IMG/VR virus record: IMGVR_UViG_3300033153_002864 | Length of the DNA: 64,000 bases | Origin: an uncultured virus (IMG/VR IMGVR_UViG_3300033153_002864) | Taxonomy: Duplodnaviria; Heunggongvirae; Uroviricota; Caudoviricetes | Reading direction: 5' to 3' (one strand) | Shown: positions 1-36,000 of the stretch, piece after piece | Numbering within the stretch: the stretch's first letter is position 1 | How the letters are laid out: each line of letters starts with the position of its first letter | Notes under the pieces: model-generated | Told to the model about the DNA's origin: nothing | The model's database searches: none | What the model saw: the letters and a program-made list of their open reading frames with translations, nothing else | Translations under genes and position numbers: made by a program

Positions 1-53
1 CTAACATTTTGTATAGTGCATTGCTTATCGGTATTTTTATTTTCTTCTGTCAT
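1..53 (-). CDS. 5' part of a small cassette ORF (MTEENKNTDKQCTIQNV...), runs off the window; start codon lies inside attC-like site 1
   Basis: ATG at 53-51, open to the window edge; manual translation. Confidence 0.5.
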   Translation of the reverse strand, partial: MTEENKNTDKQCTIQNV

Positions 54-119
54 TATTCCTAATATTTAGTTATCAATTTACTTTAGTGTTCAACGCACCA
101 TACAAGGGGCGTTATAGGC
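1..119 (+). mobile_element. attC-like recombination site 1 (left end truncated)
   Basis: CTAAC at 1-5, inner inverted repeat 9-23/91-105 (2 mismatches that are G.T pairs on the bottom strand), GTTATAGGC at 111-119. Confidence 0.7.
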
Positions 120-130
120 AATAAAAATTA

Positions 131-307
131 CTACCTCTGCATATAATGTATGCGAACCATCTGTTCAAACAAACCAAGTAGCTTGTCGTTATCAATACTG
201 TAAATATCAATTTCATTCATATTTTCACCAAAGTATTTTCTATTTGCAAATCGCATACTACTTTGTTTTTTTATTTCTTCTATTCTGTCAATTATTTTCT
301 GTTTCAT
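131..307 (-). CDS. cassette-borne hypothetical protein, 58 aa (MKQKIIDRIEEIKKQSSMRF...)
   Basis: Manual translation ATG307 to TAG131; fills the space between attC-like sites 1 and 2. Confidence 0.7.
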   Translation of the reverse strand: MKQKIIDRIEEIKKQSSMRFANRKYFGENMNEIDIYSIDNDKLLGLFEQMVRIHYMQR

Positions 308-325
308 AATTCCGTAATTTTAAAA

Positions 326-421
326 GCCTATAACAAAGTATATAGTTAAAAGCCAAGTTAATATTGTTCTAAATTGAAAGTATCTGCAATGGCTTCTAAC
401 CATATACAAATCGTTATAAAC
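326..421 (+). mobile_element. attC-like recombination site 2
   Basis: GCCTATAAC 326-334, 18-bp inner inverted repeat 338-355/390-407 with 2 bottom-strand G.T pairs, GTTATAAAC 413-421. Confidence 0.75.
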
Positions 422-423
422 AA

Positions 424-651
424 TTAGCTTGGCTCGTTGTCTATCATTTCATTTGCTTTGTCGCAATCCATATCATTAACAGCATCAAACCAATATGTAA
501 CTGATTTTTTAAGCCGTTCAATTTCACTTTCTAAAAACTCTTTTTCTTTGTCAAAGTCTTTTAGTTCTATCTCAACAATTCCAAAAGTTCCCATACACAC
601 TTCATCGTGTATTAATTCCTTTACTCTTATACTTCTATTTGATAACTTCAT
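424..651 (-). CDS. cassette-borne hypothetical protein, 75 aa, acidic with short coiled coil
   Basis: ORF track; fills the space between attC-like sites 2 and 3. Confidence 0.7.
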   Translation of the reverse strand: MKLSNRSIRVKELIHDEVCMGTFGIVEIELKDFDKEKEFLESEIERLKKSVTYWFDAVNDMDCDKANEMIDNEPS

Positions 652-667
652 AATATTTATTTTAAAA

Positions 668-742
668 GTTTATAACACTCTGTCATATTGCATAATTTTT
701 CGTACCTCAAAATAACGGCAACATACAGTAACCGTTATAATG
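668..742 (+). mobile_element. attC-like recombination site 3
   Basis: GTTTATAAC 668-676; arms CTGTCATATTGC 680-691 / GCAACATACAG 718-728 with one unpaired C (extrahelical G on the bottom strand); GTT at 734. Confidence 0.7.
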
Positions 743-1154
743 TATTTGCTAGTTTATAAATAAGTCTAAGCAACTTTTTGTCTTTCTCAACTAATTCACC
801 ATCATTCCCAAGCTTTATAATTAAAGCCATTAGATGCTTTTTCTTTTCTTTCTTTGTTGGTGATTTTTTTACTTTTTCTTTGGTTGGTAATTTATCAGTC
901 AAATCCCATTCTATTACATTTCTTCCTGTAATAGAACATTTCTTAGAACCTTTTTCATAGATAACTCCCAAATCTCTCAATTCAGTAAACCTTGAACCTA
1001 TCCCAAACAAACTTGTATTTTTATTTCTTACCGCTTCAGAACTTGTGCATGGAGCATTTTCTAATAATGCTTCATATACTTCTAATCGTTTTTTCGACAA
1101 TAATCCTTCGGCTTTTATTTCATTGTAACAGTTAATAGATGTCTGTCTAGTCAT
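735..1154 (-). CDS. small winged-helix DNA-binding protein
   Basis: wHTH-like pattern (VYEALLENAPCTSSE...SRFTELRDLGVIYEKG...CSITGR) with a basic tail. Confidence 0.6.
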   Translation of the reverse strand: MTRQTSINCYNEIKAEGLLSKKRLEVYEALLENAPCTSSEAVRNKNTSLFGIGSRFTELRDLGVIYEKGSKKCSITGRNVIEWDLTDKLPTKEKVKKSPTKKEKKKHLMALIIKLGNDGELVEKDKKLLRLIYKLANTL

Positions 1155-1351
1155 ACCGTTACAATTCTACAATTAGCTTTAATCTCATTAATAGGTATTC
1201 TTACTCTTGAAGAATAATAACCTTGTTCACGATATTTGTCAATAAATCTTCCCAAAGCTTCCATAGCTTCTTTAGAATCTTTATATTCAGCATCTCTTTC
1301 AATAGGAAATCCATCAGGACTTAATACAATATATTTTATTTCTTTTGCCAT
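1151..1351 (-). CDS. hypothetical phage protein
   Basis: ORF track; ATGA overlap with the downstream gene. Confidence 0.65.
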   Translation of the reverse strand: MAKEIKYIVLSPDGFPIERDAEYKDSKEAMEALGRFIDKYREQGYYSSRVRIPINEIKANCRIVTV

Positions 1352-1383
1352 AATATTTATAGGTTTAATTAATATTTAATCAA

Positions 1384-1401
1384 GGAGCACCGAAGCGCTC
1401 C
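1384..1401 (-). terminator. RNA hairpin with cUUCGg tetraloop (hairpin family)
   Basis: Minus strand GGAGCGC-UUCG-GUGCUCC. Confidence 0.6.
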
Positions 1402-1406
1402 AATAA

Positions 1407-1562
1407 TTATAAGCAGTCAATAATTAACTGCTCAATCTTTTTGTTCATATCAATACGAACTCTGTTAACTACTGTTCGATTATGCATCCTATCTAATGTC
1501 ATATTCAGATAGTAACTAATCATATAGAAGTCCTCTTTAGCCTTGGTGAAGGTTTTAATCAT
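1407..1562 (-). CDS. hypothetical protein, 51 aa (MIKTFTKAKEDFYMISYY...)
   Basis: Manual translation; fills the gap between two hairpins. Confidence 0.5.
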   Translation of the reverse strand: MIKTFTKAKEDFYMISYYLNMTLDRMHNRTVVNRVRIDMNKKIEQLIIDCL

Positions 1563-1574
1563 ATTATAAATTTA

Positions 1575-1616
1575 AGAAAATAAAAAAGAGTAGCCTACAA
1601 TAATGTAGACTACTCT
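1575..1616 (-). terminator. intrinsic terminator
   Basis: 13-bp stem 1587-1616 followed by a U-tract on the minus strand, just after the 1631 stop. Confidence 0.7.
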
Positions 1617-1630
1617 GTATTTTTAATACA

Positions 1631-2068
1631 TTAATTTAAACTTGCTCTATACTCCAATGATGTCGTAAACTTATACCTGTCATTAGGTACTGGAGATAAG
1701 GTCGCGTGTTTTCCATTGTTCTTATTGAAATCAATATCTACATACTCAATAAATGTACCTGGATTCCCTGATTTAACATGAATAACCTTGTTCGGACCAC
1801 TAGCTCCAACAAATACTATCTGGTATTCTATGTTAGTAGACAGTTTTAATGAATATCGATTTTTATTTCTTTTCTGCTTCACTTGTTCCCAAGCTTCATC
1901 ATCTTCACTTTGAGCATACAAGTAAATGTCTGCAGTATAATCATTAACAATGTGACCTTTAACTTTAAGATAGTTTGTATTTGTTTGGGCTGAGCAACTG
2001 CCTATCATAATAGCTCCCAATATTAGTATTACACTAAGTATTGCCATAAAAGATTTTGCACTTTTCAT
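1631..2068 (-). CDS. exported protein / putative lipoprotein with beta-rich domain
   Basis: N-terminal hydrophobic signal ending MIGSC. Confidence 0.6.
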   Translation of the reverse strand: MKSAKSFMAILSVILILGAIMIGSCSAQTNTNYLKVKGHIVNDYTADIYLYAQSEDDEAWEQVKQKRNKNRYSLKLSTNIEYQIVFVGASGPNKVIHVKSGNPGTFIEYVDIDFNKNNGKHATLSPVPNDRYKFTTSLEYRASLN

Positions 2069-2131
2069 AATAAATAAGTTTTAGTTAATAATAAATTCAA
2101 AGAGCCGTTAAGCTCCTTGAAGTATGTTGCA

Positions 2132-2467
2132 CTACAATCTTACTCGATTTATTCCATCTCCGAATATATCTGAAGCTCGAAGTACTACACCATTCCAATT
2201 TAACATTAGATAATTGCCTCTAACAAAGGGTTTCACCCATAGGCAAATGTTCTTCTCTTTTGGGTTAAAGAAATTACTAGAGAGATTAATACGAACCCTT
2301 TTAATATAGTGTCCTTCCATCTCAATCATTGTGTTACCTCTGTTACCAAGCCTTTCAACTAGGTTATTCATTAATTCTCGACCTACTGAGGTCTTGGTCA
2401 TTTTCTCCTTGGTGCTTTCCATGGATTTAATACCCTTTTCCGATAATAATTGTGCTAATCGTGTCAT
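2132..2467 (-). CDS. hypothetical protein
   Basis: ORF track, co-oriented with neighbours. Confidence 0.6.
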   Translation of the reverse strand: MTRLAQLLSEKGIKSMESTKEKMTKTSVGRELMNNLVERLGNRGNTMIEMEGHYIKRVRINLSSNFFNPKEKNICLWVKPFVRGNYLMLNWNGVVLRASDIFGDGINRVRL

Positions 2468-2530
2468 TTTCCTTGATTTAAGTGAATAAATAATTTGTTA
2501 TGATTCCTGCAGAATATGTATATAATAAAA

Positions 2531-2809
2531 TTAAGGCTTATATAACCCTTGAATATGATTGTGAACATCAGTAAGTAGAAACGGATCATTAATGATGTGC
2601 TTAATAGTCCAAACATCTACTCTATGATAGTACTTCCAAGCTTTTATCTTGAATCTTATAGAATAAAGCATTTCACGCTCATTGTCCTTCTTATTTAAGC
2701 TATTTATGTAGCTATTTAAAGAATAGTTCCAGTCTGAAACTAATGCATTGACATAAAGCACGCGAAGAATCAGCAAAAACAAACAAATAAATAATATAAT
2801 GTAATTCAT
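2531..2809 (-). CDS. hypothetical membrane-anchored protein
   Basis: N-terminal TM helix. Confidence 0.55.
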   Translation of the reverse strand: MNYIILFICLFLLILRVLYVNALVSDWNYSLNSYINSLNKKDNEREMLYSIRFKIKAWKYYHRVDVWTIKHIINDPFLLTDVHNHIQGLYKP

Positions 2810-2894
2810 CTCTATTGTATTAAATTAATAAAAGGTAGTTCGAGTCTTTCCTCACTCTTAACTACTATTAAACAACATACTCGAAGTATGTTTG

Positions 2895-2937
2895 TAAAAA
2901 ATAAGCCAACCTACGTTCTTACGTAAGTTGACTTATT
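2895..2937 (-). terminator. intrinsic terminator
   Basis: 17-bp stem 2900-2937 with G.U pairs and a U-tract, after the 2945 stop. Confidence 0.7.
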
Positions 2938-2944
2938 GTTTGTA

Positions 2945-3541
2945 TTATAGCTTAGGCTCATTGATTGATACAAGACGTTGGAATCCTCTGTCTTTATCCA
3001 TCTTTGTTTCCAAATAGAATACCTCTCCAGCAAATCCCTGCAATGCAGTAATTAACTTAGCAATGTATTCAGTTGGGTTGGTAAATCTTATAGCAATTCT
3101 AGAGTTATTATCATCATCAGCCCAAATAAATGTAACATCTTCTCCATTAGCCTCTTTAATCTCAGCTAATTCTTCATTAGTAGTAAATACTATTGGTTGA
3201 CCATCAGCTCCTACTACGTATTCAACAGGATTACCCAATTGAGCAAATAATGCTTTAGCTGCCTCATTCTTAGAGTGTTTAGCGATGTAAACTACTTTAC
3301 CAAATACTCTTAAAAACCTAGCACCTTCAGATAAACTAATGTATTCATCATGACCTGCTGTATCATCAGTTGGAGCAGCATTGCTACTAAAACTAATCTT
3401 TGCACAATCATTACCTTTCTTAGATAAGTGTGCTGTTACTGATTTAATAGTAGCTAAACCATTTTCCATTGTAACTTTAACTGAATCAGAAGTGTTAGCT
3501 ATTGCTCCTGCTCCTGAAAATAATGCGTTTAAATCTTTCAT
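2945..3541 (-). CDS. hypothetical early protein, possibly OB-fold/SSB-like
   Basis: ORF track; SKKGNDCAKISF resembles DUF669-type SSB hairpins (weak). Confidence 0.6.
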   Translation of the reverse strand: MKDLNALFSGAGAIANTSDSVKVTMENGLATIKSVTAHLSKKGNDCAKISFSSNAAPTDDTAGHDEYISLSEGARFLRVFGKVVYIAKHSKNEAAKALFAQLGNPVEYVVGADGQPIVFTTNEELAEIKEANGEDVTFIWADDDNNSRIAIRFTNPTEYIAKLITALQGFAGEVFYLETKMDKDRGFQRLVSINEPKL

Positions 3542-3636
3542 CTTATTGTATTTTGTATAAGTTTATTTATTAGGTTAATCCCAATAAATTCAAATAGCCA
3601 CAAAGCACTCAAGCTTAATGACTATTTGATATTACA

Positions 3637-3765
3637 CTATACTATTTCTAATGAATATTCGTGAATAGCATCCAACTCATCAAGAGTTAAATCACTATCA
3701 ATTAAATATTGTTGGTATTCTGCATCTCCAATGTTTTCTATTAATTCATCTACGCTTACTATCAT
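3637..3765 (-). CDS. very acidic 42-aa protein
   Basis: Manual translation MIVSVDELIENIGDAEYQQYLIDSDLTLDELDAIHEYSLEIV; 12 D/E, no K/R. Confidence 0.6.
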   Translation of the reverse strand: MIVSVDELIENIGDAEYQQYLIDSDLTLDELDAIHEYSLEIV

Positions 3766-3800
3766 AACTTTATGTATTTATGGGTTAATATCAAAGAGCA

Positions 3801-4007
3801 TTAAAGCTCCTTGATTGAATACCAGTCAACATCATTCTGCTTAACAATAGCACGTAAAACTAAATGATATGTACATTGCTCCCAAGCATCTTTAAACCCT
3901 AAATGTTTAAATGTTTCAGCTATCTGTATCTTCCTATCATCACTACTGTTACCATTGAACTCCATCATCAATGCTTTGACTATTGAATTAGCTACTTCTG
4001 TTCTCAT
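3801..4007 (-). CDS. hypothetical protein, first gene of the leftward block
   Basis: ORF track. Confidence 0.6.
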   Translation of the reverse strand: MRTEVANSIVKALMMEFNGNSSDDRKIQIAETFKHLGFKDAWEQCTYHLVLRAIVKQNDVDWYSIKEL

Positions 4008-4168
4008 AATTATATGTATTAGGTGAATAATAAACTCCCTGCACTACCATAAGGAGATGACATCATTTACGTAGAACCACAAAGGGCTGATGACAATGTT
4101 ATACTACTCTAACGAATCAATCGTATTCATATAACAAATAGCCTAAAAGAACTCGTGTATCTATATCC

Positions 4169-4319
4169 TTATTTAGAATCATTCTAAATAACATAATACT
4201 CCACACTATTTAGACTCATTCTAAATAACAACTATACTCTATTTAGAATCATTATAAATAAGCTCATAATATACATAACATCAGTACATTACAACACTAT
4301 TTAGAACCATTCTAAATAA
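4169..4319. repeat. four 23-bp palindromes YTATTTAGAATCATTCTAAATAA (putative Fur boxes)
   Basis: Copies at 4169-4191, 4206-4228, 4239-4261, 4297-4319; 11-1-11 dyad symmetry. Confidence 0.85.
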
Positions 4320-4766
4320 GATATACTTGCAACTGTCCTAAATATTCCCGAACTTCGTACACATACAATACGGATAACACGTATAGCACACACACACATC
4401 ATCATCATATAAGCAACACACAAGACATAACGCTTGTAAGCTTAATCAATCACATTAAATAGATTAAAACAGTCTCTTGCTGCTCTACGTAAGTAGTTAA
4501 AACAATACGAAACGTATTCAAATAGCAATAAAGAACTAGGATTTGCTTTGATTTTGAATCCTAATTTCATTTTAATGGGGGGTATGTTTCCAATTTGATA
4601 AGGGTATGGGGGTTGATAGTAGATAGTCTTCTCTTCCTTCACTTTCACTAATAGTATTTGAGGTACGGGTAGTACGTATAGGTACGGAAGGGGGGCTTGG
4701 TTATAGTTGTGTTTAGGGGTAGGGGTTCGATTAACGGGCTTTTATATAATTAATAAATAATATATT

Positions 4767-5000
4767 ATGAAGAGAAGGAAAATGTTAATGATGGTAATGG
4801 CTGTGTCTTTGGTTGCAGTTGGTTGTACTAAGAGTGAGGAGTATGGATGTACTTGTACTCATACTTATTTGAATGGTGGTGGGGTAGATCCTACACTGTC
4901 TTTTGTAACTGCTAAAAATCGTGATGAAGCTGCGGAGGAGTGTGCTAGTCGTTCTAATGTAGATAGTTCTAATATTACTCATTCGTGTAGTTTAGATTAG
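4767..5000 (+). CDS. small Cys-rich lipoprotein
   Basis: Basic N-terminus, hydrophobic core, lipobox-like AVGC; 4 further Cys. Confidence 0.7.
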   Translation: MKRRKMLMMVMAVSLVAVGCTKSEEYGCTCTHTYLNGGGVDPTLSFVTAKNRDEAAEECASRSNVDSSNITHSCSLD

Positions 5001-5059
5001 CACATTAAATAATATCGTTATATTTGATTTCTTATTATATTAATTTAAAATAGATAATT

Positions 5060-5323
5060 ATGTCAAGAAATAAAAATGCTGTATCAAAAGCTGCTGCGAG
5101 GTCAGCAAAGTCAGTTAGTAAGAAAGGTGGGGTAACGACTACTACGAAGACTAGTAGATCAGGTAAAACGACTATAACTAAGAAAGGTCCTAATATTAAT
5201 ATGAAGCAAACTACCAAGGGTAATAAGCAGAAGGTTAAAGGAACTGTAAGTACTAAAAACAAGAAGTATAGTGTTAACAGTAAAGGAACTGTAGCATCTA
5301 AACCAAAAAGAAGAACGTATTAA
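5060..5323 (+). CDS. small Lys/Thr/Ser-rich basic protein
   Basis: Composition; TATATTTG element at 5019-5026 upstream. Confidence 0.65.
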   Translation: MSRNKNAVSKAAARSAKSVSKKGGVTTTTKTSRSGKTTITKKGPNINMKQTTKGNKQKVKGTVSTKNKKYSVNSKGTVASKPKRRTY

Positions 5324-5376
5324 TATATTTGGATTAAGAATATCATTTGTAATTATTTAACTACATTTGCTGACCA

Positions 5377-5721
5377 ATGAAAATGAACAAGAAAATATCA
5401 AGAAGAATAGTTTCGGCTATTTGTGCTATCCTAGTTGGTGGTATAGGATTTTTTTCTGGTGCTACCTTGGAAAAGGATAGTCACGTAGTTGAGAGGAGAA
5501 CTTTACTTGATTCATTAGATACTACTCAGGCAATAGTTGATGATTACGAACACACTGCCAATTACCAGGCTATGTTTAATTACAAAGCTAAAGAGGTTAC
5601 TGCCAACTGTAACAAGTGCGGCCCTCGTCTAACCGACATTCAATCGATGTTGGATTCCATAAAGGAAGTAAAAGGAGAGTTGGTGGTGCCAAAGTACCCT
5701 GGTTGGTCGGCACTTGAATGA
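5377..5721 (+). CDS. membrane-anchored hypothetical protein with CxxC
   Basis: N-terminal TM; TACATTTG at 5362-5369. Confidence 0.6.
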   Translation: MKMNKKISRRIVSAICAILVGGIGFFSGATLEKDSHVVERRTLLDSLDTTQAIVDDYEHTANYQAMFNYKAKEVTANCNKCGPRLTDIQSMLDSIKEVKGELVVPKYPGWSALE

Positions 5722-5795
5722 CAGGTAAGTTCGCAGCCAACGAAAGAAACCTTTAATCTTAGTAATTTTCGCAAAAAATATTCTAAGATAAATTA

Positions 5796-5835
5796 AAATC
5801 CCCTGAAAGTGGTTGAGACCTGCAGGGGATTTTTT
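5796..5835. terminator. bidirectional terminator between convergent blocks
   Basis: AAAATCCCCTG...CAGGGGATTTTTT. Confidence 0.7.
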
Positions 5836-5873
5836 AGTAGTTGGTATTAGTGAATTTATTATTAACTACTCTA

Positions 5874-6209
5874 TCATGCTTTATTTTGTCCTTCGACATT
5901 TCTTCTATTTCTATCAGCTGTTCTTGCGTACTGCCAATGTAGAGCTTCTTCAATCTTTGTAATAGTTAAAGCATTCTCCCTACATGGAAATGCTTCATTC
6001 AAACTCTGGAACAAACATTTAGTGTAGTTTAAAATATCTACTGCTTGTAATCCATTCACTCCAACCTCTCCGATGGGATCTGATTGTACTTTAAATGATA
6101 CAATAGGAGCAACTCCTTTCTCATCTGCGATATTTTCTAATCCAATGAAGTCTATTACTTCTGGGTGTGTTTCTTTTAACTTTTCAAATGCTTTTTCTAC
6201 GTGTCTCAT
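5874..6209 (-). CDS. Tad1-like (Acb2/Tad1 family) immune-signal sponge protein
   Basis: FPCRENALTITKIEEALHW..R..DR..RNVEG.NK matches the Tad1 C-terminal signature (SRENACALTHVEEALMW..R..DR..RNVLGTN) as recalled. Confidence 0.75.
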   Translation of the reverse strand: MRHVEKAFEKLKETHPEVIDFIGLENIADEKGVAPIVSFKVQSDPIGEVGVNGLQAVDILNYTKCLFQSLNEAFPCRENALTITKIEEALHWQYARTADRNRRNVEGQNKA

Positions 6210-6271
6210 TTTATCTTTCTTTAAATTATTTAGATTCGACCTTAATGGTCTTTGTTTTTACTACTTATTTA

Positions 6272-6568
6272 TTAAGAGCTCCAATCATCTTTTAGTTCTA
6301 CTTTAATTGTTTTTGGTGCTATAGGTGCTTTTGGTAATGGCATCCAATGGGTAATCTTATAATCCTCATAAGGTTCCATTTCACGAGTTGCAAACCAATG
6401 TGCTTCTTTATCGTGAAGGTGACCACTATCCTCTTTACTATTGGGATCTATTACCCTTTCCCATCTTTGTACACTTGCTTCATAATCATTAAAGAATCCT
6501 TGTCCAGTTACAAATACTGTAACTCCTGGTTCCGGAAGTTCGTCTTCTACGCTTATCCAATTTTTCAT
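6272..6568 (-). CDS. DUF551-family protein
   Basis: WISVEDELPE ... ITHWMPLP signature. Confidence 0.85.
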   Translation of the reverse strand: MKNWISVEDELPEPGVTVFVTGQGFFNDYEASVQRWERVIDPNSKEDSGHLHDKEAHWFATREMEPYEDYKITHWMPLPKAPIAPKTIKVELKDDWSS

Positions 6569-6573
6569 AAATA

Positions 6574-7020
6574 TTATTTTTTAATTCTATATATTAATTC
6601 AAATGTTACTGAGAACATTGTTTTTATTATGATGAAAGCTATTAATTTATAATACCAATCCTCTTGTCCATTAACTGATATTGTCAATGCTATAATTAAT
6701 TGCCAAGTAGAATAAAATAAGAATTGAGCTAAATGCCAACCATCAGTAAGAAATACAAATATTGTTGTTGAGAAAGGAAATCTTTCTGCATGTTTTGGTG
6801 CGAATCCAAAGTGATACCATTTTGGTATATAACGATAAAGGGTAAATTTCTTATCAGTTATATTGCTAGGTGTCCATGGTATGGTTTTATACTTTCTCCA
6901 CCAACCATCATTCTTATTCCAATAGTCAGAGTTAAACTTTCCTTCGCTACTCCAATCCATCAATACATTTAGTGGGGCAAGTAGTAAGATAAGTATTGCT
7001 ATTATAACAATCATCTCCAT
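6574..7020 (-). CDS. multi-pass membrane protein
   Basis: Several TM segments, FLTDGWHL motif. Confidence 0.65.
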   Translation of the reverse strand: MEMIVIIAILILLLAPLNVLMDWSSEGKFNSDYWNKNDGWWRKYKTIPWTPSNITDKKFTLYRYIPKWYHFGFAPKHAERFPFSTTIFVFLTDGWHLAQFLFYSTWQLIIALTISVNGQEDWYYKLIAFIIIKTMFSVTFELIYRIKK

Positions 7021-7223
7021 ATCCCTTTATAGTTCATCCAAGCTCCAAATGGAACTAGAACAATACCAATGAATAGAAATACTAAAGCAAGCCACCATTC
7101 GCTGCTCTCTCTGACTATTTCAAATATTAAAACTATAATTGTCATCAGTATTAGCACTAATGAAGTGTTCTTGTATTTCTTTCTAAAAAAATACGCTGTA
7201 AATGTTTCGTTTTCTTTTTTCAT
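7011..7223 (-). CDS. small 2-TM membrane protein
   Basis: Two hydrophobic segments; overlaps neighbours. Confidence 0.6.
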   Translation of the reverse strand: MKKENETFTAYFFRKKYKNTSLVLILMTIIVLIFEIVRESSEWWLALVFLFIGIVLVPFGAWMNYKGIWR

Positions 7224-7483
7224 AATTTATTTGTTTTTACGTTTATGTTCAGGGTATCTAACCCCTTTTGATTATTAATACTTAAAACTAATTGCTCTCT
7301 TGCTATATTTAAGGCCTTTTGTATTCTATTTAATTTATGAAATCCTTTTGAGTTTGGCTTTATTCTTTGTATTACCTTGCCACTAAAACAATCCCTCCAT
7401 TCAATTAATACAATGCCAGTTTTATCATCCGTAGTGATGATTACCTTGCTATCATCTAAAGAATCTTTCTTACTTAATTTCAT
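7220..7483 (-). CDS. hypothetical protein
   Basis: ATGA-coupled operon. Confidence 0.6.
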   Translation of the reverse strand: MKLSKKDSLDDSKVIITTDDKTGIVLIEWRDCFSGKVIQRIKPNSKGFHKLNRIQKALNIAREQLVLSINNQKGLDTLNINVKTNKL

Positions 7484-7686
7484 TGTTTTCTTCCATTAGT
7501 AAAAAACCATCCAAACTTTCTGTTAAACCATTTTTCAAATCTTACAAACCTATTTGGCTTGATGTGATTCATTAGGTCCTTTCTTATTTGTTCAGGGGTC
7601 TTTCTGTCTTTATCCCTTTCTTTTATTAGGGCCTTTCTTTCGTCTTGTTCTTGTTCGTTTTTATATATCGATCCGATTCCGCTCAT
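7480..7686 (-). CDS. hypothetical protein
   Basis: ATGA-coupled operon. Confidence 0.6.
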   Translation of the reverse strand: MSGIGSIYKNEQEQDERKALIKERDKDRKTPEQIRKDLMNHIKPNRFVRFEKWFNRKFGWFFTNGRKQ

Positions 7687-7689
7687 TGC

Positions 7690-7995
7690 TTAATGTTTAA
7701 ATTCATCGAACTTGTAGTTAATTCTACCATGTTCCGATATTATTGATAGGTTAGTTAATTTGCTTTCGTGTTCTATTTCTTTTCCAGAGATGCCGAGAGT
7801 AGCCCATATCCTTGTGATCAGCTTTTCTCTCATTCTATCTGTTGGGATTTTGTTGTTATCATCTAAAACCATTACAATCTTTTTCGCCTGTAGAGAGCTG
7901 GCTCTCTTTGTTTTAATCTTAGTGTATGTAATGGTGCAATTCGCTAATACAATCTTAGGCTTATATCCGACCTCATACTTCCTTTCCTTTTCCAT
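7690..7995 (-). CDS. hypothetical basic protein
   Basis: First gene of the operon, TACATTTG immediately upstream. Confidence 0.6.
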   Translation of the reverse strand: MEKERKYEVGYKPKIVLANCTITYTKIKTKRASSLQAKKIVMVLDDNNKIPTDRMREKLITRIWATLGISGKEIEHESKLTNLSIISEHGRINYKFDEFKH

Positions 7996-7999
7996 ATAA

Positions 8000-8058
8000 C
8001 AAATGTAAATAAATAATTGTATTTAAAATACACTTATACTGATTTATTTGTATATTTG
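8000..8058. promoter_or_regulatory. divergent Bacteroidota sigma-70 -7 elements
   Basis: TACATTTG on minus (8007-8000) and TATATTTG on plus (8051-8058) match TAnnTTTG. Confidence 0.55.
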
Positions 8059-8062
8059 CCTT

Positions 8063-8380
8063 GTGAGATTACATAAAAAGAATACAGAAAATCCTTTTCA
8101 GGAGGGTGAATTAAATATTAAAATGGAAGAAGCATACATCATAAAGGGTTTGAGCAAGACAGCTATGAAGCTGTATATGTTTCTGCGTGAGCATGCTTTC
8201 CGAACTAATGGTCGCGTGATATTTGATTTCGCTATGGCTAAAGGAATTTGTAACTTTAAACAAGATAAGTCTGTTTATAATGCTTTAGGGGAGTTGATAA
8301 ATAATGATATTATTGCTGGGTCTGATGATTCTATTGAGTATTACTACAACCCCAGTTTTATGTCAAACGAAAAAGAATAG
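8063..8380 (+). CDS. winged-helix DNA-binding protein (RepL-like)
   Basis: LSKTAMKLYMFL...SVYNALGELINNDII...YYYNP pattern; start uncertain (GTG 8063 or ATG 8123). Confidence 0.6.
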   Translation: MRLHKKNTENPFQEGELNIKMEEAYIIKGLSKTAMKLYMFLREHAFRTNGRVIFDFAMAKGICNFKQDKSVYNALGELINNDIIAGSDDSIEYYYNPSFMSNEKE

Positions 8381-8382
8381 CT

Positions 8383-8601
8383 ATGGACGTTTTAAGGGTA
8401 GGTGATAATTTAATTGTAGTAGACGGTTTATCTGTCTACCAGCCAAAGGGTGATAGTAATTGGTTTGCCTGCAATAATAAAAGAATTGGTACTATTCGTT
8501 TACAAGCCTTATATTTGTATTTACATAATGAGGATAATGCTCGAAGAAAGCGATTCAATACTTATGTGGATAAAGTTATTAATAAATTAATATACAATTA
8601 A
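8383..8601 (+). CDS. hypothetical protein
   Basis: ORF track. Confidence 0.5.
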   Translation: MDVLRVGDNLIVVDGLSVYQPKGDSNWFACNNKRIGTIRLQALYLYLHNEDNARRKRFNTYVDKVINKLIYN

Positions 8602-8602
8602 G

Positions 8603-8761
8603 ATGAATATCAATCAACGAGTTGCATTCGCGAGAGCTGCACAAGAAGAGGATGCTAAGATAATGAGCAAGAGAAAGCCAAAAGCCACAAAGAACAAGAG
8701 AAAGGCATCAACTAAGATGAAGCCAGTAAGTAGGAAAGGTAAAAACAAATTCACGTATTAA
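8603..8761 (+). CDS. small Lys-rich basic protein, 52 aa
   Basis: Manual translation MNINQRVAFARAAQEEDAKIMSKRKPK...; TAATG-coupled to the next gene. Confidence 0.6.
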   Translation: MNINQRVAFARAAQEEDAKIMSKRKPKATKNKRKASTKMKPVSRKGKNKFTY

Positions 8762-9306
8762 TGTATAACGAACTTATTGATGTAGATACTGATGGGAATG
8801 TTTTTGTTAAAGACAATTCTATTGGGTTAATGCCAAAACTGTTTGCTGTCTATAAGGATAAGCACATGGGTAGTAACATGGTTAAATACATTGTTGGTGT
8901 ATATGATTACAAATCTCCTTTTAGAAGACTCCCTGAAGACGAGCGCTCAGCAAGAGTTTCCTATTCTGTTTATTCTAAAGACAAACCTCCAAAAGTTTCT
9001 GATACAAAAGTTGAAGAAGCTATTGAAGAATATCTTAAATTACAATATGACCCACTTATTGACCAATATAATACGATGGGTGAGCAGATGTATAAGATGA
9101 ATAAGGTTTACAAGGCTATGATTCCTACGGAGAAGAATCTTGAAGACATGAATAAGATGCAAGAGCAAATGGGTAAAGCTGCAATAGCTAGAGACAAGAT
9201 AAAAGACCTCATTCTTAAAGATCAACAAACAGAATCTAATATCAAGGGTACTGGTTCAGAAGACTTTAGTATTTGGGAACAAGATGAGATGATAGGGAAA
9301 AAATAA
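8761..9306 (+). CDS. putative terminase small subunit
   Basis: Helical 181-aa protein directly upstream of TerL, as in crAss-like phages. Confidence 0.6.
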   Translation: MYNELIDVDTDGNVFVKDNSIGLMPKLFAVYKDKHMGSNMVKYIVGVYDYKSPFRRLPEDERSARVSYSVYSKDKPPKVSDTKVEEAIEEYLKLQYDPLIDQYNTMGEQMYKMNKVYKAMIPTEKNLEDMNKMQEQMGKAAIARDKIKDLILKDQQTESNIKGTGSEDFSIWEQDEMIGKK

Positions 9307-30037: not shown

Positions 30038-33000
30038 ATGCCAGAAGAAATAGTTCACAATACTGAGGATGGTAATACTGCTCAAAATCAACCTACAAAT
30101 AATGTAAATGAAGAGGATTCGGCAGCTAAAGCTTTCCAAGAAAAGACTGCTCGAACAATAGCCTACTTCAACGATATGGATAATCCTGAGTATGATGATA
30201 TAGAAAAGGATATACTTGCTACAGGAACGTCTATACCAGACTTTAAGAAAGATTTTGTTGAATCTATTGATGCGATGGGTGGTGGTGAAGGAGAATCTAT
30301 AATGGGTATGATGCCTACTGATAAGAACTATAGTAATGTTTATGATTTTAAGAATAGTGTTTGGGATGATTTTGCTACAAGTTTTCAAGGTGGTTTAAAT
30401 AGAGCTGCTTATGGTCTTGGTGCAGTTGTACCAGGTATTGCTGCTGCTACTCAAGAAAGTGGAGAAAGCCCTGAATGGACTACTGATTGGATTGAGGGGA
30501 TGGGAGATTGGCATGATGCTACAAAGGAAAGAACAAGCGATGCTTCTAAGCAATCGTTTTTTGAAACAGGAAGTGCAAGAGCATTTGCTAGTGGAATGGG
30601 AAGTGGTTTAGCCTCTATGGCTCCAATGGCTTTAAATTTTATTCCTTATGTTGGTAGTGCTGCATATCTTACAACAACCTTTTCAGATGTATTTGGTACT
30701 ATCTTAGAGAATGGTCAAGAGAATGGATTGTCCGTTGAAAATTCATCACGTATGGCATTGGCATTGGCTATTCCTATTACTGCTTTGGAAAAAGTTGGTA
30801 TGAAAGGAGTTACCAATCCTATAAAGAATGCTGCTATGAAATACCTAGAGAAAGGTGGTATGAATATAGCAATGAAAAAACTTGCTAAAGAGGGTGGTAG
30901 TAAATTAGCTAGAAAAGATTTTGTTGATTTCCTAAAAGTAGGAGCTAAAGATATTGGAAAGAAAGAAGCAGTTAAGCGTAGAGTTGGAAATATTGCAAAG
31001 GCATTTGGTACTGGTGCAGGGAGGGAAGGTGTTACTGAAACATTACAATCTATACTTGAACAATCGGGAGAACAACTTTGGGATATTTATGCTGCTGATG
31101 CAGATGCTACTATTGGTGATGGTAAGTATGGTACTGATATAAAGTCAAAAGAGTTTTGGATGCAGGCAGCGGAAGAAGGTTTTTATGGTGCTATTTTAGG
31201 TGGTGTTATGGCAGGAGGTGGCTCTGCTCATCAATCATTGAGAGATCAATCTGCATATCATTATGTTAGAACATCTTTAGATAAAAATAAACCTCAAAAT
31301 ATTACTGCTTTAAAGAATTACGCAGCCAAACAACAAGCTGATGGTGTATTAACTAAAGGAGAGCTAGATAACTTTGTGGGGAAGATTGATGAAATGGTTA
31401 AGTACGAGGGAGAAATGTGGCATCAAATGGATAATCCGTCTGCTAAGTTTCAATCTTATAACAATATGGTTACTCGTGATGCTGCAAGTAAGATTGCGGA
31501 TTCTGATTGGGTGGCTGAACAAGAGGCTAATTACCCTGAAAAGGCAATTGTTATTAAAGGACTAGCTAATGATATTAAGAATGATTCTCAAAAGATAGTT
31601 GAAGCTGTTAGTAATGCTGAAACTCAATTAAAAGAAAAGAATAAAGGGAAGGATCGTAGTATTGGTAAGAAAGTTTCTAATGCTATATTTCAAAACAAAA
31701 AAACATACGCTTATAACCCCGTTAATCAAAATGAGATTGCTCCTGATTTAACGTCAAATATAGATAAATTAAACAATCTCTTACCTAAAGAGATGAGTAT
31801 TGATCCGCTAAACAATAAGCAAGCGGAGAATGAGGGGAAGATTCAAACTGTTAGAGATGGGAAAGAAATAACTCCCGATAAGCCATTTGGTAAGGTTTTT
31901 AAAACTAAACCATCTAAAGATGATGGAGAAATCGTTGTCTTGACAGAGGCATCTTTAACTGCAGACGGAAAGCTAGAAGTAGAAGCTGCTTATAAAGCTG
32001 CTATGGAATCTAAAACTCCAGAACAAAAGCAAGAGATTATAGATAACATTGGTAATAAGTATGGTATTGATAAAGATGCTATTTCTTACATCGCCAATAA
32101 TATAGATGTTACAGAAGAAGGATTATCAGAAGTTACATCACCCGAAGAAGAAGTTGAAAGTCAGAATAAAGAATCTCAAGCAGATAAAAAAGCTAAAGAG
32201 AAAACTGATGAAGATGAAAAGACAGATCCTCTTGATGCTTTATTTGGAAAGAAGAATGAACCATCTACTAAAAAAGATTCTGTAAAGAAAACTGGTAGTG
32301 CTAGAGAAGTTGTAGATGCTGCTGTAGAGAGTATTGAATCTTTAGCTAAAAAGGAAGCTAAACCTACTGCGAAAAAAACTGAGGAAAAATCAGAAGATAA
32401 ACCTACTGATAAAGAGGAAGTTACGGAAGAAACTAAGGATAGGGTTTCTTTGGAGAATAAGATTTTACAAGCTACAGAAATATTAAGTGGTGATGTTGAG
32501 GTTGGTCCATCTGTATTAAATAGAAAAATGGGTGTTTCTCTTGATGAAGCTCAAGAAATAATTGATGAACTTGAAAGTAGAGGTGTCGTATCTGAATCTA
32601 AGGGTGCTAAGGGTAGAAAGTTTTTAGCGAAGAAATCAGAACCTAAAACAAAGATTAAAGAAGAAGTAGTTGATGAAACTGTTACAGCCGAAGAACAAGA
32701 AAAGATTGATGAGCAAGTAGCTGAAAATCAAACTGCAGAAAAAAAGAAGATTGATAGTATCAATAGTATTCTTACAAGAAGTGACCAGAGAAAATCGGGA
32801 AGCGTTTACGAACAACAATTAATCAAGGATAATCCTGAGTTGTATAATGAGATTAAGAAACACTTCAAAAGAATATTCCCATTTGTTTCTGTAAAGGAAG
32901 TTGATAAACTTGGAGAAAAATATGGTGCTAAAGTTCTTGCAAGATTAGTTGAAAGTGGTATAGAAATAGATCCTAAGAACGCTATTCAAACATCATTGAT

Positions 33001-36000
33001 TCACGAGTACGGTCACGTATTCTTAGAAATGCTTGGAGATAAGCATCCATTAGTTAAGATAGGATATAACCTTATCAAAGGTTCTGACTTCCATAAGGAG
33101 GCTCAAAAGAATTACCCAGACAAGACTGAGGCTGAACAGTTAAACGAAGCTCTTACAGAAGCTGTTGCAACTGATTCATTAGAGATACTTAAAAATAGAT
33201 TGGATGGTGCTAAGTTTAAGCAATTCCAGGAGTGGATGAAAAGTATTTGGAGTAGATTAAAGAAATATATAGGAAGAGCTAATCAGAAAGACATTACTAG
33301 AATAATTGCTAGAGAAATGACATTGGCCAATAAGCCATTTAAATCAAGTCTTGGTAATTTAGTTGGTATTAATAAAGATCAACGACATAGTTCGCCAATA
33401 TCAAGAAAGGTAAAGGAATCTGTTGATGCCGTTTATCAATCATTGTCTATTCAATTATTAGATTACATTTCTAACAAGGATGGTAATTTTAATTTTAAAG
33501 ATAATAAAGATCAGTCTTTAGTTGCTTTTGCTACTTTACTTAAAAGGTATTATGATGAGAAGCAAAATCCAGATACTTCTAAAACTAAAATATTTAATGA
33601 GGTAGATTTAGGTATTGATGTAAAGGATAATATTGAATCATACGATGATATATATGAGTTTTCTGAAAAGTTAAAAGAAATTGATAGCGAAATTTACAAT
33701 GCTGCAGATACCGTTCTTAATTCAATGTTTAAGTCTAGTCTTGAATTAGATGAACATCAGCAGACAGAAGAGGAAATTGACTTAGAAGAGGATTTAGGTG
33801 AGGAAACAAATGGAGATGCAATTAAAGCCGATAAGAAAGTTTCATTATCTGTTCGTAGTATTCTATCTTCTATCGTTGATGACCACGGTAGTAAGATTGG
33901 AAGTGATGCTGTATTTTCTTACGTTTCCAATCTTGCTGAAAGAACTTACAAAAAGGCTGGATTAAGAAACGCACTTAATGAAGATAAATTAAACAGTCCA
34001 ATAGCAAGAAGAGTTGTTCAACTTATAGATGCTTTAGAGAATGGTAATCAATCTGACAAAAGAAAACTTGCAGGATTTATGCAGGAAATATCTTCATTGA
34101 TTCAGGTCAAGAGTGTTGGTCTTAATTTCGAGAAAAAAACAGATGAAGAGTCTGGTGAAGTAAGTTATGTTGTAAGGAATCCAATAAGAAATAAAGACAA
34201 TACATACAATGGATTACTTGACGCATTAAGCAATGCTAATGAAGCGGATAGTAAATGGTTGAATAGTATTGATACCGTAAACATTATAAAGGATATTGAT
34301 AGCTATATAGATAACGACAATATTAAACCAACATCAAAACTGACAGATTTCCTTTCGGAGTTGAGTAGAATTTTGGATGTTAATATTGGCGTAGATCAAT
34401 TAGAAGATGTTATTAATGAGTTTTCTAAAACTAGAAATAGCAAGACTACCAACTTTGTTTATGCGATTGCCGGAAAGTATGACTCGATGAAGACTGTTGC
34501 AAATAAGGAATCTACATTCTCTAAGATTACTGGCTTTGTTGATTCAATTTACAAAGGATTAAAGACAAGTCTATTGAGTAATACTTATCTCAATGGCTCT
34601 AACAATACGGTTACAACTACTCAATTAGGTCATTGGGTAAGTACTCTTAATTCAATGTTAATGAATGATGAGAGTGGTCGTGTTGAAGCTATGAAGAATA
34701 GTGATATTTATAAGAACAATCCTGTCTTTAGACATTTTGTTGAACAAGGGAAAGTTGAGTACTCCACATTCGATTCATTAAAGAACTTTAATACGGGAAC
34801 TAATGTTGAGTATGCTAATATGTCAGATAGAGATTATATGATGTTACAGCTATCTAATTTCGCTACAAGCACTTCAAAGAATCATTACAACCAAACGTTA
34901 GGTGTTAAATCTAACAGACAAAGCATTTCGTTGTTTGAGGTTCCAAGCTATACTAAGGATGGTAAGTTTAGTCGTTCTGAATTAAGAAATGCTTACAATG
35001 ACCAAGTATCTATGCTTGAGCCAATGTTAAAGAGAATGTTAGCTAGTCATAGTTCTCAAGATGCCAAGAATGATTTGATAGAAGATTTCAATAAGCTATA
35101 TGTACATACGGCTGATAAGAATGGAAACATTACTTCTGGATTAAGTAAGGCTAAATATGAAAATGATATTAATGAAATTAAAGATGTTGCTAAGAATAAC
35201 AATTTAGATAAAGCTTTCTCTTCAAAAATTGGTAAAGGAAAACAGTTTGCTAGTTTTGATGAAATGGTTGAAAGTTTCTTTTTCATAGAGGCTTTGAACA
35301 GAACTTCTCTTAACGATATATATGGTGGTGTTGCTTTAGAGTATGCCAACATAGTTGCTGGAAAAAGAAATTCAGATGGAACTCGTAAAGGTGGTGGTGT
35401 TCAGCAGAACACTAAGCGAATGTCTTCTTCTGACAGTAATGGTAAGCAGATTGAAATAGATAAGCCTATTCATTATATTGTTTTTGATTCAGGAATTAGT
35501 GGAGCTGATTCATTTAAGTTCAACGGTTCACATTTAACTGAACATATTGATAATGAAACTGGAAACTTAGATCCTTTAGGAATCAATTCTAAAGAGTTAG
35601 TATTTCAAGTTGACCCAAAAACAGGTCAAACTGTTTACATTAAATCAAGTGGACTTAACTTAAAAGTTAATGAGGATGGTCATAATTTGAAAGGTTTTGG
35701 AGAGAATATGTCTAAGATTGGTGATGCTATGTTAGCTGTTGAACAAATGTTAGCTACAGATAGTGACCCAAATCCTTATGTAGTATTTATGGATTCCTCT
35801 GCATCTAAAGGAACACATAAGTTTAAAACTATTAATTATCAAGATGTAATGGATGGTAATTTAGAATCTGTTAAGGGTGCTGTGAATACCCTTGAAATAG
35901 ATAATCTAACTACTCCATTTAATCTTAACAAGACTTTAAAAGACGTTCATCAGCAAGAGGCTATACTATCTACTCAAGCTGCTATAATACAGTTTAATGC

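Follow-up and report, generated by a model that had tools for sequence, protein, structure and literature searches.

A probable integron-like gene cassette array at the edge of a crAss-like phage sequence and related arrays beside Xer-like recombinase genes

Introduction

Why should small phage genes be separated by imperfect palindromes whose ends match across the genes better than within a palindrome? This question is raised by the first 742 nucleotides (nt) of a 64,000-nt stretch of DNA from an uncultured virus (IMG/VR record IMGVR_UViG_3300033153_002864), here called the window, which belongs to a crAss-like phage according to its Pfam matches (Crass_capsid, 7.9e-53; crAss_MUZ, 2.7e-96; ring proteins 1 and 2). 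A first-pass annotation, made from the letters alone, had read these 742 nt as an integron-like array of mobile gene cassettes integrated by an IntI-type recombinase. The array is borne out by our analysis and the type of enzyme is not. Window 1-742 is probably the outer part of a mobile gene cassette array, of a kind that is widespread in Bacteroidota phages, and the array is integron-like without being a canonical integron. The support comes from many different core hexamers that follow one pairing rule, from homology breakpoints at AAC cores, from arrays in related phages that end at a recombinase gene, and from a 4.9-kb insertion in a cultured Freya phage. The recombinase linked to these arrays is Xer-like and lacks the IntI-specific domain.

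Results and discussion

Complementarity across the cassette genes

All genes in window 1-8000 are carried by the minus strand, and in the direction of transcription the order is the 139-amino-acid gene, site 3, a 75-amino-acid gene (p75), site 2, a 58-amino-acid gene (p58), site 1 and an open reading frame (ORF) that runs off the left edge. The array as contained in the window thus consists of three hairpin sites, two whole cassettes and the beginning of a third one:

668..742, minus strand: site 3, the first hairpin site of the array, with the 5' core CATTATAAC at 742-734 and the 3' core GTTATAAAC at 676-668
424..651, minus strand: cassette gene p75, 75 amino acids, no known family, with GTTATAAAC upstream and GTTTATAAC downstream
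326..421, minus strand: site 2, a chimeric hairpin, with the 5' core GTTTATAAC at 421-413 and the 3' core GTTATAGGC at 334-326
131..307, minus strand: cassette gene p58, 58 amino acids, no known family
1..119, minus strand: site 1, a long hairpin cut by the window edge, with the 5' core GCCTATAAC at 119-111
735..1154, minus strand: the 139-amino-acid gene (phrog_1123), which adjoins the array and is not flanked according to the complementarity rule
1..52, minus strand: start of the left-edge ORF, with its ATG at 52 in the loop of site 1, reading through the right arm and the 3' core

The rule that connects these sites can be stated for the transcribed strand. A gene is preceded by a hairpin that ends with GTT and six further nucleotides (N6), and the next hairpin, which follows the stop codon, opens with the complementary hexamer and AAC (N6'-AAC). 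Both testable genes in the window obey it (2/2), since GTTATAGGC at 111-119 is the exact reverse complement of GCCTATAAC at 326-334, and GTTATAAAC at 413-421 that of GTTTATAAC at 668-676. These matches had been reported in the first-pass annotation together with the observation that a single small ORF lies between the sites; both statements agree with the sequence, each pair flanking one minus-strand ORF (131-307 and 424-651). In the whole window these are the two GTT-N6/N6'-AAC pairs at gene borders, and the other 24 such 9-mer pairs are located inside coding DNA.

The annotation was also correct in that the cores within one site match less well. The outer N6 of site 2 form four Watson-Crick and two G.T pairs out of six, which is poorer than the cross-gene match, and a site's own N6 is fully paired in none of 19 sites (one to five Watson-Crick pairs of six). 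Since the N6 within a single site are never fully complementary, the sites of an array are chimeras. For site 2, the 5' core belongs to the p75 unit, and the arms, the loop and the 3' core belong to the p58 unit. Including their hairpins, the p75 unit (hairpin 3) covers about 413-733 and the p58 unit (hairpin 2) about 111-412.

Further sites with this cross-complementarity had been named in the annotation as something to look for, and they are found in related contigs. A pattern derived from the conserved right arm was used to scan viral contigs and yielded 28 loci, 24 of them with a whole hairpin. At 20 of these 24 sites, all from other phage contigs, the exact reverse-complement 9-mer is present 156-735 nt downstream. 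The cross-gene pairing often extends to 14 bp, with G.T or G.U at position 11. Over 57,008 nt of oriented loci we counted 36 inverted pairs of 9-mers starting with GTT, compared with 11.1 ± 3.5 (maximum 20) in 100 shuffles.

The flanks of p58 illustrate how the two ends change together. They are GTTATAGGC / GCCTATAAC in the window, GTTGTACGC / GCGTACAAC in the loci L195, L206 and L207, and GTTGTGTGC / GCACACAAC in L201, L202 and L203. The p58 unit therefore occurs with three covarying core states (ATAGGC, GTACGC and GTGTGC), and the changes are compensatory. Other hexamers that obey the rule in contigs bearing p58 are ATAGTG, ATAGAG, ACCCAC, ATATGC, GGGCGT and AGCCAC.

Folding of the sites and the conserved hairpin family

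A preference for folding of the bottom strand, as claimed in the annotation, is clearest for site 2, which folds much better on the minus strand with either parameter set. With RNA parameters its free energy is -36.3 kcal/mol on the minus strand (z -7.95, reached by 0/200 shuffles) versus -22.6 on the plus strand, and with DNA parameters -11.0 versus -7.8. For site 3, whose 5' core CATTATAAC overlaps the stop codon of the 139-amino-acid gene, the DNA-parameter values are -8.3 on the minus and -5.7 on the plus strand. In site 1, positions 105-91 pair with 23-9 in a 15-bp minus-strand stem (an inverted repeat of 15 nt, 87% complementary). Of its 3' core the first five bases, GTTAG, are seen at 5-1 and the remainder lies beyond the window edge, so the array does continue to the left, as had been proposed. 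Homologues of site 1 occur at 4535-4670 of L196 and in Polaribacter phage Freya_10.

When the minus strand is folded to minimum energy with DNA parameters, the non-Watson-Crick stem pairs are all G.T (three in site 2, two in site 3, two in site 1), and they appear as A/C on the plus strand. The statement that all mismatches are A/C on top is thus right for these folds of the three sites and wrong for site 1 as it had been delimited, a small local hairpin that contains an A/G mismatch. The general anatomy is that of attC-type sites, with a stem closed by AAC and GTT, an asymmetric internal loop, a conserved inner stem and a loop of 35-70 nt.

Site 2 can be aligned from end to end with 17 sites of other contigs. 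The consensus fold of the 18 aligned sites, site 2 included, has 19 pairs, of which one is G.U in 18/18 sequences and two others in 15/18 and 16/18; a further pair covaries, being GC in 11 sequences and AU in seven. The conserved G.U pairs would be C.A mismatches on the opposite strand. A covariance model built from this alignment and run without filters across the whole window scored 326-421 with 85 bits on the minus and 37 bits on the plus strand, site 2 being part of the training set. Site 1 was matched weakly (2-119, minus strand, E 9.3), and beyond the three sites nothing in the window was better than E 2, which confines the window's array to the left edge. By blastn, the conserved hairpin had no match in 50,697 phage records.

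What probably moves as one unit

Relatives of p58 were found in three viral contigs and nine metagenome loci, L208 being the same contig as L196. They share 79-88% amino acid identity with p58 at 11 other loci, and their neighbours differ. Between copies of the p58 unit the mean nucleotide identity is 0.84 from the G after the upstream AAC through the downstream AAC (21 pairs, range 0.79-1.0). In the 60 nt outside it is 0.59 upstream (six pairs) and 0.65 downstream (21 pairs), compared with 0.57 for random 60-mers. L201 and L202 are identical through ...GCACACAAC-GG and unrelated beyond, and L206 and L207 are alike starting directly past ...CAAC|GG. These ends of homology define the unit as hairpin, 3' core, leader, gene, trailer and the 5' core of the next site. 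The crossover would accordingly be placed at or beside AAC|G, and the hairpin would appear to move with the gene downstream of it.

Gene content in this region also differs among relatives. In the close relative L191, which has about 91% identity over window 714-3631, the 139-amino-acid gene is already different (48% amino acid identity), and what follows the L191 version of site 3 is an unrelated gene. In the relatives L192 and L193 all three genes are absent. The p75 protein gave one partial match alone, in L194. Conserved leader (TTTTAAAATTA..) and trailer (TAATTTTTATT) sequences are found repeatedly between small genes that are not related to one another. A 16-base leader pattern found at least 115 stretches in viral contigs, none of them related to the window by tblastn; the pattern is unspecific because it is too AT-rich.

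In L196 and L205, a host-type promoter replaces the site upstream of p58. L196 contains a promoter-like sequence of approximately 45 nt three times (about 620-655, 3900-3959 and 5065-5123), each before a MLNSL/MFNSL-like start and one of them at the place where the p58 hairpin is expected. It consists of TTG, 19 nt and TAGTATTG, which fits the Bacteroidetes -33/-7 pattern. ORFs that start inside hairpin loops and continue in frame through the right arm and the 3' core are present at 5189-5323 of L195, 3960-4253 of L196 and 814-1098 of L209; in these, the recombination point lies inside the coding sequence. Strong AGGAG-type ribosome-binding sites precede most genes in L195 and L197. None is found at the p58 unit in L195, which makes the unit look foreign to that genome. 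L201 has long arrays of short tandem repeats beside the cassette region, at about 261-626 and 3920-4181, of the types GTGAAACGGCCATGTTC and GGCCATTTT.

A Xer-like recombinase at the end of the arrays

A match to PF00589 was found in six of the 21 records that bear the hairpin family. In G015/G023 and G017, a recombinase of 266-267 amino acids is encoded on the cassette strand directly after the last 5' core. L245 has eight consecutive rule pairs and then the recombinase gene, and L244 one cassette with the recombinase 54 nt past the last core. An alignment of three array recombinases, scanned against viral contigs, gave 129 relatives, of which 80 were kept. Upstream of these 80 recombinases there are 494 rule pairs in 273,928 nt (1.80 per kb; shuffled 0.28), and downstream 97 in 361,271 nt (0.27 per kb; shuffled 0.23). 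At least two rule pairs are present in all 58 recombinase loci that have at least 1,500 nt upstream (58/58), and in 46 of these 58 the last core ends 17-98 nt before the recombinase protein match.

The array recombinase contains the domains PF00589 and PF13495. Its best NCBIfam matches stay below their cut-offs and are of the XerA type (171-189 bits versus 220). On the integron integrase model TIGR02249 it reaches 144-156 bits versus a cut-off of 265, with the match split into two stretches. The closest solved relatives are XerA (4a8e, 126 bits; 5hxy), followed by VchIntIA (2a3v) and XerD. IntI proteins possess a specific domain of approximately 35 residues near patch III that is partly behind the structure-based recognition of attC, as stated by Cury et al. 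2016 (PMC4889954). The array recombinase is short where IntI has this domain, and the accepted definition of an IntI therefore excludes it; the term IntI-type has to be given up for the array-linked enzyme.

Cultured Polaribacter and Cellulophaga phages

Homologs of the recombinase with about 38% identity are present in 49 phage records, chiefly of Polaribacter and Cellulophaga phages, among them Freya_1 to Freya_10 and Cellulophaga phage Ingeline. Arrays, too, are present in the Freya phages. The Freya phages and Ingeline are siphoviruses, not crAss-like phages.

Two Freya isolates differ by an insertion at a core. In Freya_1 (43,978 bp), ...TTTTTATT-GTTTACAAC runs straight into ACCCCTATAAC..., with the ATG of the integrase about 46 nt further on. 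In Freya_10 (48,920 bp), 4,942 nt split ...GTTTACAAC from ACCCC..., exactly at AAC|, and the whole difference in length between the two genomes sits at this AAC core beside the recombinase gene. The insert contains 12 small annotated ORFs, opens with GG and a hairpin and closes with ...GTTGCTAAC.

The first unit of the Freya_10 insert follows the rule with GTTAGCAGT / ACTGCTAAC. Its hairpin has 90% identity over 129 nt to 4547-4675 of L196 and 92% identity over 25 nt to window 1-25. The first Freya_10 ORF and the L196 protein have their first 22 residues in common (73% identical), encoded in the loop, the right arm and the core, and the two proteins diverge past the 3' core. The Freya paper reads the recombinase gene as an integrase and as a hint of temperate life, and its available text has no match for "cassette" or "hairpin" (Bartlau et al. 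2021, PMC8776804).

Observations that do not fit easily

Several observations weigh against the interpretation of the region as a mobile cassette array. Some concern the sites themselves. The rule fails at four of the 24 conserved-hairpin sites, two of which are cut by contig ends. It also fails for the p58 copy of L204 and a 59-amino-acid gene of L206, both preceded by GTTAGGCAT, and for the L196 homolog of the left-edge ORF (the p77 gene), which is flanked by non-matching cores. The outer N6 of a site within an array seldom pair, which leaves the folded site with only a short outer stem. The three AAC-to-GTT palindromes of the first-pass annotation are also of unequal standing. Site 2 is strong, but site 3 by itself lies within chance (z -1.24 for the RNA and -1.91 for the DNA parameter set), its sole support being the covariance model of related sites (668-742, minus strand, 18.3 bits, E 0.063), and site 1 had been delimited wrongly (91-119, when it spans 1-119). 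Moreover, the strand with the G.T bias is the mRNA-sense strand, and an RNA structure would account for the bias equally well.

Other observations concern the enzyme. As the annotation had noted, no tyrosine recombinase is found in the 64-kb window, neither by Pfam in 80 ORFs nor by tblastn with two array recombinases; the array is then either served by a gene outside the window or a remnant. PF00589 is also missing from five partial related records (G002-G006), and four records rated 100% complete contain hairpin cassettes without a PF00589 match. The alignment of the recombinase with VchIntIA falls into two pieces with 22 residues opposite 73. Finally, the placement of the genes speaks against an integron, since it is the folding strand that bears them and the hairpin stands 5' of each gene. 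By integron convention, ORFs on the top strand are followed by their own attC and served by a platform promoter, and this arrangement is not found here.

Alternative explanations

One alternative is that everything happens at the RNA level. The hairpins would then be intergenic terminators, processing sites or stabilisers of a polycistronic transcript, a pairing of the N6 kept by selection would join the 5' and 3' untranslated ends of a message, and the shuffling would be ordinary phage mosaicism. The coincidence of the genes with the better-folding strand, which places the G.U pairs in the mRNA, agrees with this, as do the position of G.T/G.U within the extended pairing and the ordinary hairpins in nearby spacers (1364-1400, 1579-1624 and 2896-2941). 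Left unexplained are the homology of copies that ends exactly at AAC|G, the arrays that abut the recombinase gene in 58/58 loci and the two isolates that differ by an insertion at an AAC core. In addition, a possible promoter in the hairpin loop, suggested by the promoter consensus, would yield transcripts without the left arm. We regard an explanation by RNA alone as improbable, and a role in RNA may exist as a second function.

Improbable to the same degree is a fragment of a canonical integron, i.e. a cluster of true attC sites without an integrase (CALIN) that is moved by the IntI of a host bacterium, with the phage merely as a carrier. The attC consensus is GTTRRRY, and beside the general AAC...GTT fit of the cores, GTTAGGC (L204 and L206) and GTTAGGT (L191) agree with it. 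The lengths of the sites, 75-136 nt, are inside the range of attC sites. Virulent-phage CALINs have been published, one of them from a Polaribacter phage, and five of six tested sites recombined with IntI1 according to Qi et al. 2023 (PMC9892861). This does not account for arrays that are tied to a phage-encoded recombinase lacking the IntI insertion, or for cassette genes that are all on the strand opposite to the integron convention. Furthermore, p58 was not found in 185,579 species genomes, nor the hairpin by blastn in 50,697 phage records. A host-IntI CALIN may still apply to the window taken by itself, with less probability for the family, which is tied to the phage enzyme.

The likeness to integrons, above all to sedentary chromosomal ones with near-identical attC sites, and to CALINs nevertheless goes far. 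Shared traits are the imperfect palindromic AAC...GTT sites, the existence of units without an ORF, and the resemblance of site sequences within a lineage. The crossover falls in the 5' core of the better-folding strand, and the same strand encodes the recombinase. Integron arrays adjoin an attI site and the integrase gene, where new cassettes enter; the arrays of relatives stop at a site that neighbours the recombinase gene, and in the window, where the array runs off the left edge, this part is not seen. The difference lies in the 266-amino-acid, Xer/XerA-like recombinase, in an outer stem of 9-14 bp with free N6 in place of the 7-bp RYYYAAC/GTTRRRY box of integron attC sites, and in a loop that can hold the start codon and perhaps a promoter. 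Array sites that are chimeric and cassette ends that are mutually complementary are described for integrons as well (Cury et al. 2016, PMC4889954).

Among phages, a close parallel is given by Qi et al. 2023 (PMC9892861), who describe virulent phages in which attC-type sites are clustered and no integrase accompanies them, and who share the idea of phages as carriers of cassettes. That study found 17 CALINs in 10,705 genomes by means of bacterial attC models and tested them with bacterial IntI1. Unlike the arrays described here, no phage-encoded Xer-like recombinase accompanies arrays in that text as available, and the strings "crAss" and "Bacteroid" are absent from it. Phage CALINs and a few phage integrons are thus already known from this source (PMC9892861). 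Our search of the published literature found phage CALINs and no paper on such arrays beside a Xer-like recombinase in phages.

Still somewhat less likely is the shuffling, by homologous recombination, of promoter and stem-loop modules (PeSLs) between small genes as in T4-type phages. The recurrence of the conserved hairpin, leader and trailer between unrelated small genes resembles such modules. PeSLs are likewise stem-loop modules that flank ORFans in plastic regions with small-gene shuffling, and they yield mini-circles (Arbiol et al. 2010, PMC2839356). Unlike the array sites, PeSLs are direct repeats exchanged by homology, and they are not known to have AAC/GTT cores, cross-gene complementarity or a dedicated recombinase. 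An exchange between direct repeats predicts neither free N6 that are complementary across a gene nor chimeric sites, and a dedicated recombinase at the array end and breakpoints at AAC|G are not predicted either. Since leaders and trailers are conserved, homologous shuffling could account for the units that break the rule. It may be behind the 59-amino-acid gene of L206 and the p58 copy of L204, alongside the main mechanism.

Chance palindromes in AT-rich intergenic DNA are hardly conceivable: site 3 is weak alone and the 8-mer GTTATAAC, with up to one mismatch, occurs in the window about as often as expected (41 times versus 39.5), but the fold of site 2, the 9-mer pairs, the 20/24 sites obeying the rule, the covariation and the link to the recombinase are all far above controls.

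Other types of elements were set aside by reasoning. Single-strand transposons of the IS200/IS605 type need a hairpin at both ends, and the units have one. Elements with 9-bp terminal inverted repeats would leave a hairpin that travels with the downstream gene unaccounted for. Modules of the pdif type, bounded by inverted half-sites, are a known outcome of Xer-type exchange; their sites alternate in orientation, and those of the arrays share a single direction. N4-type hairpin promoters for a virion RNA polymerase would explain neither the cross-gene rule nor the link to the recombinase.

Proposed mechanism and implications

A mobile cassette array, the explanation that we prefer, would work as follows. 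Read on the transcribed strand, a unit would consist of G, the imperfect hairpin, the 3' core GTT-N6, a short leader, the small gene and a trailer with N6'-AAC. In the circular form both ends would be closed into one long stem, N6'-AAC with GTT-N6, which is why the two ends of a unit should be complementary. Recombination at AAC|G of the folded strand would put the circle into the AAC of another site. After insertion the unit would be flanked by its own complementary ends, and the neighbouring sites would turn chimeric. The single crossover point would be the 5' core of folded, palindrome-like sites.

Judged from the sequences, the substrate would be folded single-stranded DNA, and the Xer-like recombinase at the array end is the likely catalyst. 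A kinship to Xer recombinases is evident, XerA and XerD being among the closest solved relatives. The sites differ. Xer recombinases use short cores of double-stranded DNA in which the spacer is fixed, and the two half-sites of the arrays, separated by 60-120 nt, come together only through the folding of one strand. Present-day mobility of the units in this crAss-like phage is presumed. What the window itself holds is a small, recombinase-less end of an array.

A wider picture can be put forward tentatively. Bacteroidota phages, crAss-like ones included, might share a pool of cassettes, and a Xer-like enzyme might act on folded single strands without the IntI domain. Such a system could represent the integron principle in a second version that is carried by phages, or it could be related to the ancestor of integrons. 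The hairpin 5' of a gene could carry a promoter and the first 20 or so codons, by which N-termini would be paired anew with other protein bodies.

The general view is that integrons belong to bacteria and require the special IntI domain. If the proposed mechanism is true, structure-guided cassette exchange is not tied to IntI, and a shorter Xer-like enzyme runs an equivalent layout. This gene-capture layout is widespread in marine and saline phage contigs and occurs in cultured Polaribacter phages, and it suggests that such phages trade accessory genes much as bacteria with integrons do. It would also explain how phages can replace their small accessory genes rapidly. For the present phage, the genes at 131-307 and 424-651 are to be regarded as exchangeable cargo and not as core genes; the divergence of close relatives at precisely this place would thereby be accounted for. 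The Freya phages on Polaribacter offer a cultured system for testing.

Adjoining genes and other features of the window

A function for p58 or p75 was found neither in PHROGs and Pfam nor in the protein atlas, and the p58 cassette had no match among 185,579 species genomes. The 139-amino-acid gene has 74 relatives elsewhere, none of which shares its neighbouring genes. In 71 of the 73 listed relatives no hairpin site follows this gene, the other two being L052 and L053. In many marine phage contigs (among L001-L073), the homolog is followed by a gene starting with MKSISKLKKELDKWFSLYIRLRD, with overlapping stop and start; the window lacks this gene.

The lineage appears to be distant from cultured or deposited phages, since a protein of 2,953 amino acids (window 30038-38899), which we take to be the virion RNA polymerase of crAss-like phages, had no tblastn match at E 1e-5 in the 50,697 phage records. 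By blastn against the same records, window 1-6000 gave a single irrelevant match of 89 nt. The region has no counterpart in G001, the nearest related record, and Rfam, searched over window 1-9000 with E up to 10, gave chance matches alone.

Some further elements were seen to the right of the array. The spacer between the 51- and the 66-amino-acid genes contains a 7-bp hairpin (1364-1400, minus strand) that is capped by a UUCG-type tetraloop and has a single G.U pair on the mRNA-sense strand. The hairpin is kept in L191 and resembles an ordinary RNA hairpin, unlike the cassette sites. The intergenic inverted repeats at 1579-1624 and 2896-2941, with arms of 21 nt and runs of A/T alongside, resemble two-way intrinsic terminators. 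The protein of 111 amino acids encoded at 5874-6209 (minus strand) has a weak, sub-cut-off match to the Acb2/Tad1 hairpin domain (E 7.8e-4, 20 bits versus a cut-off of 27) and might be an anti-defence sponge. A stretch without ORFs at 4571-4784 is C-rich amid AT-rich DNA, with runs such as CCCCTACCCC and CCCCCCTTCC. The non-coding spacer at 4008-4300, near the switch of gene direction, contains three copies of a palindromic repeat of approximately 22 nt (TTATTTAGAATGAnTCTAAATA type), which could be an operator or origin-like array.

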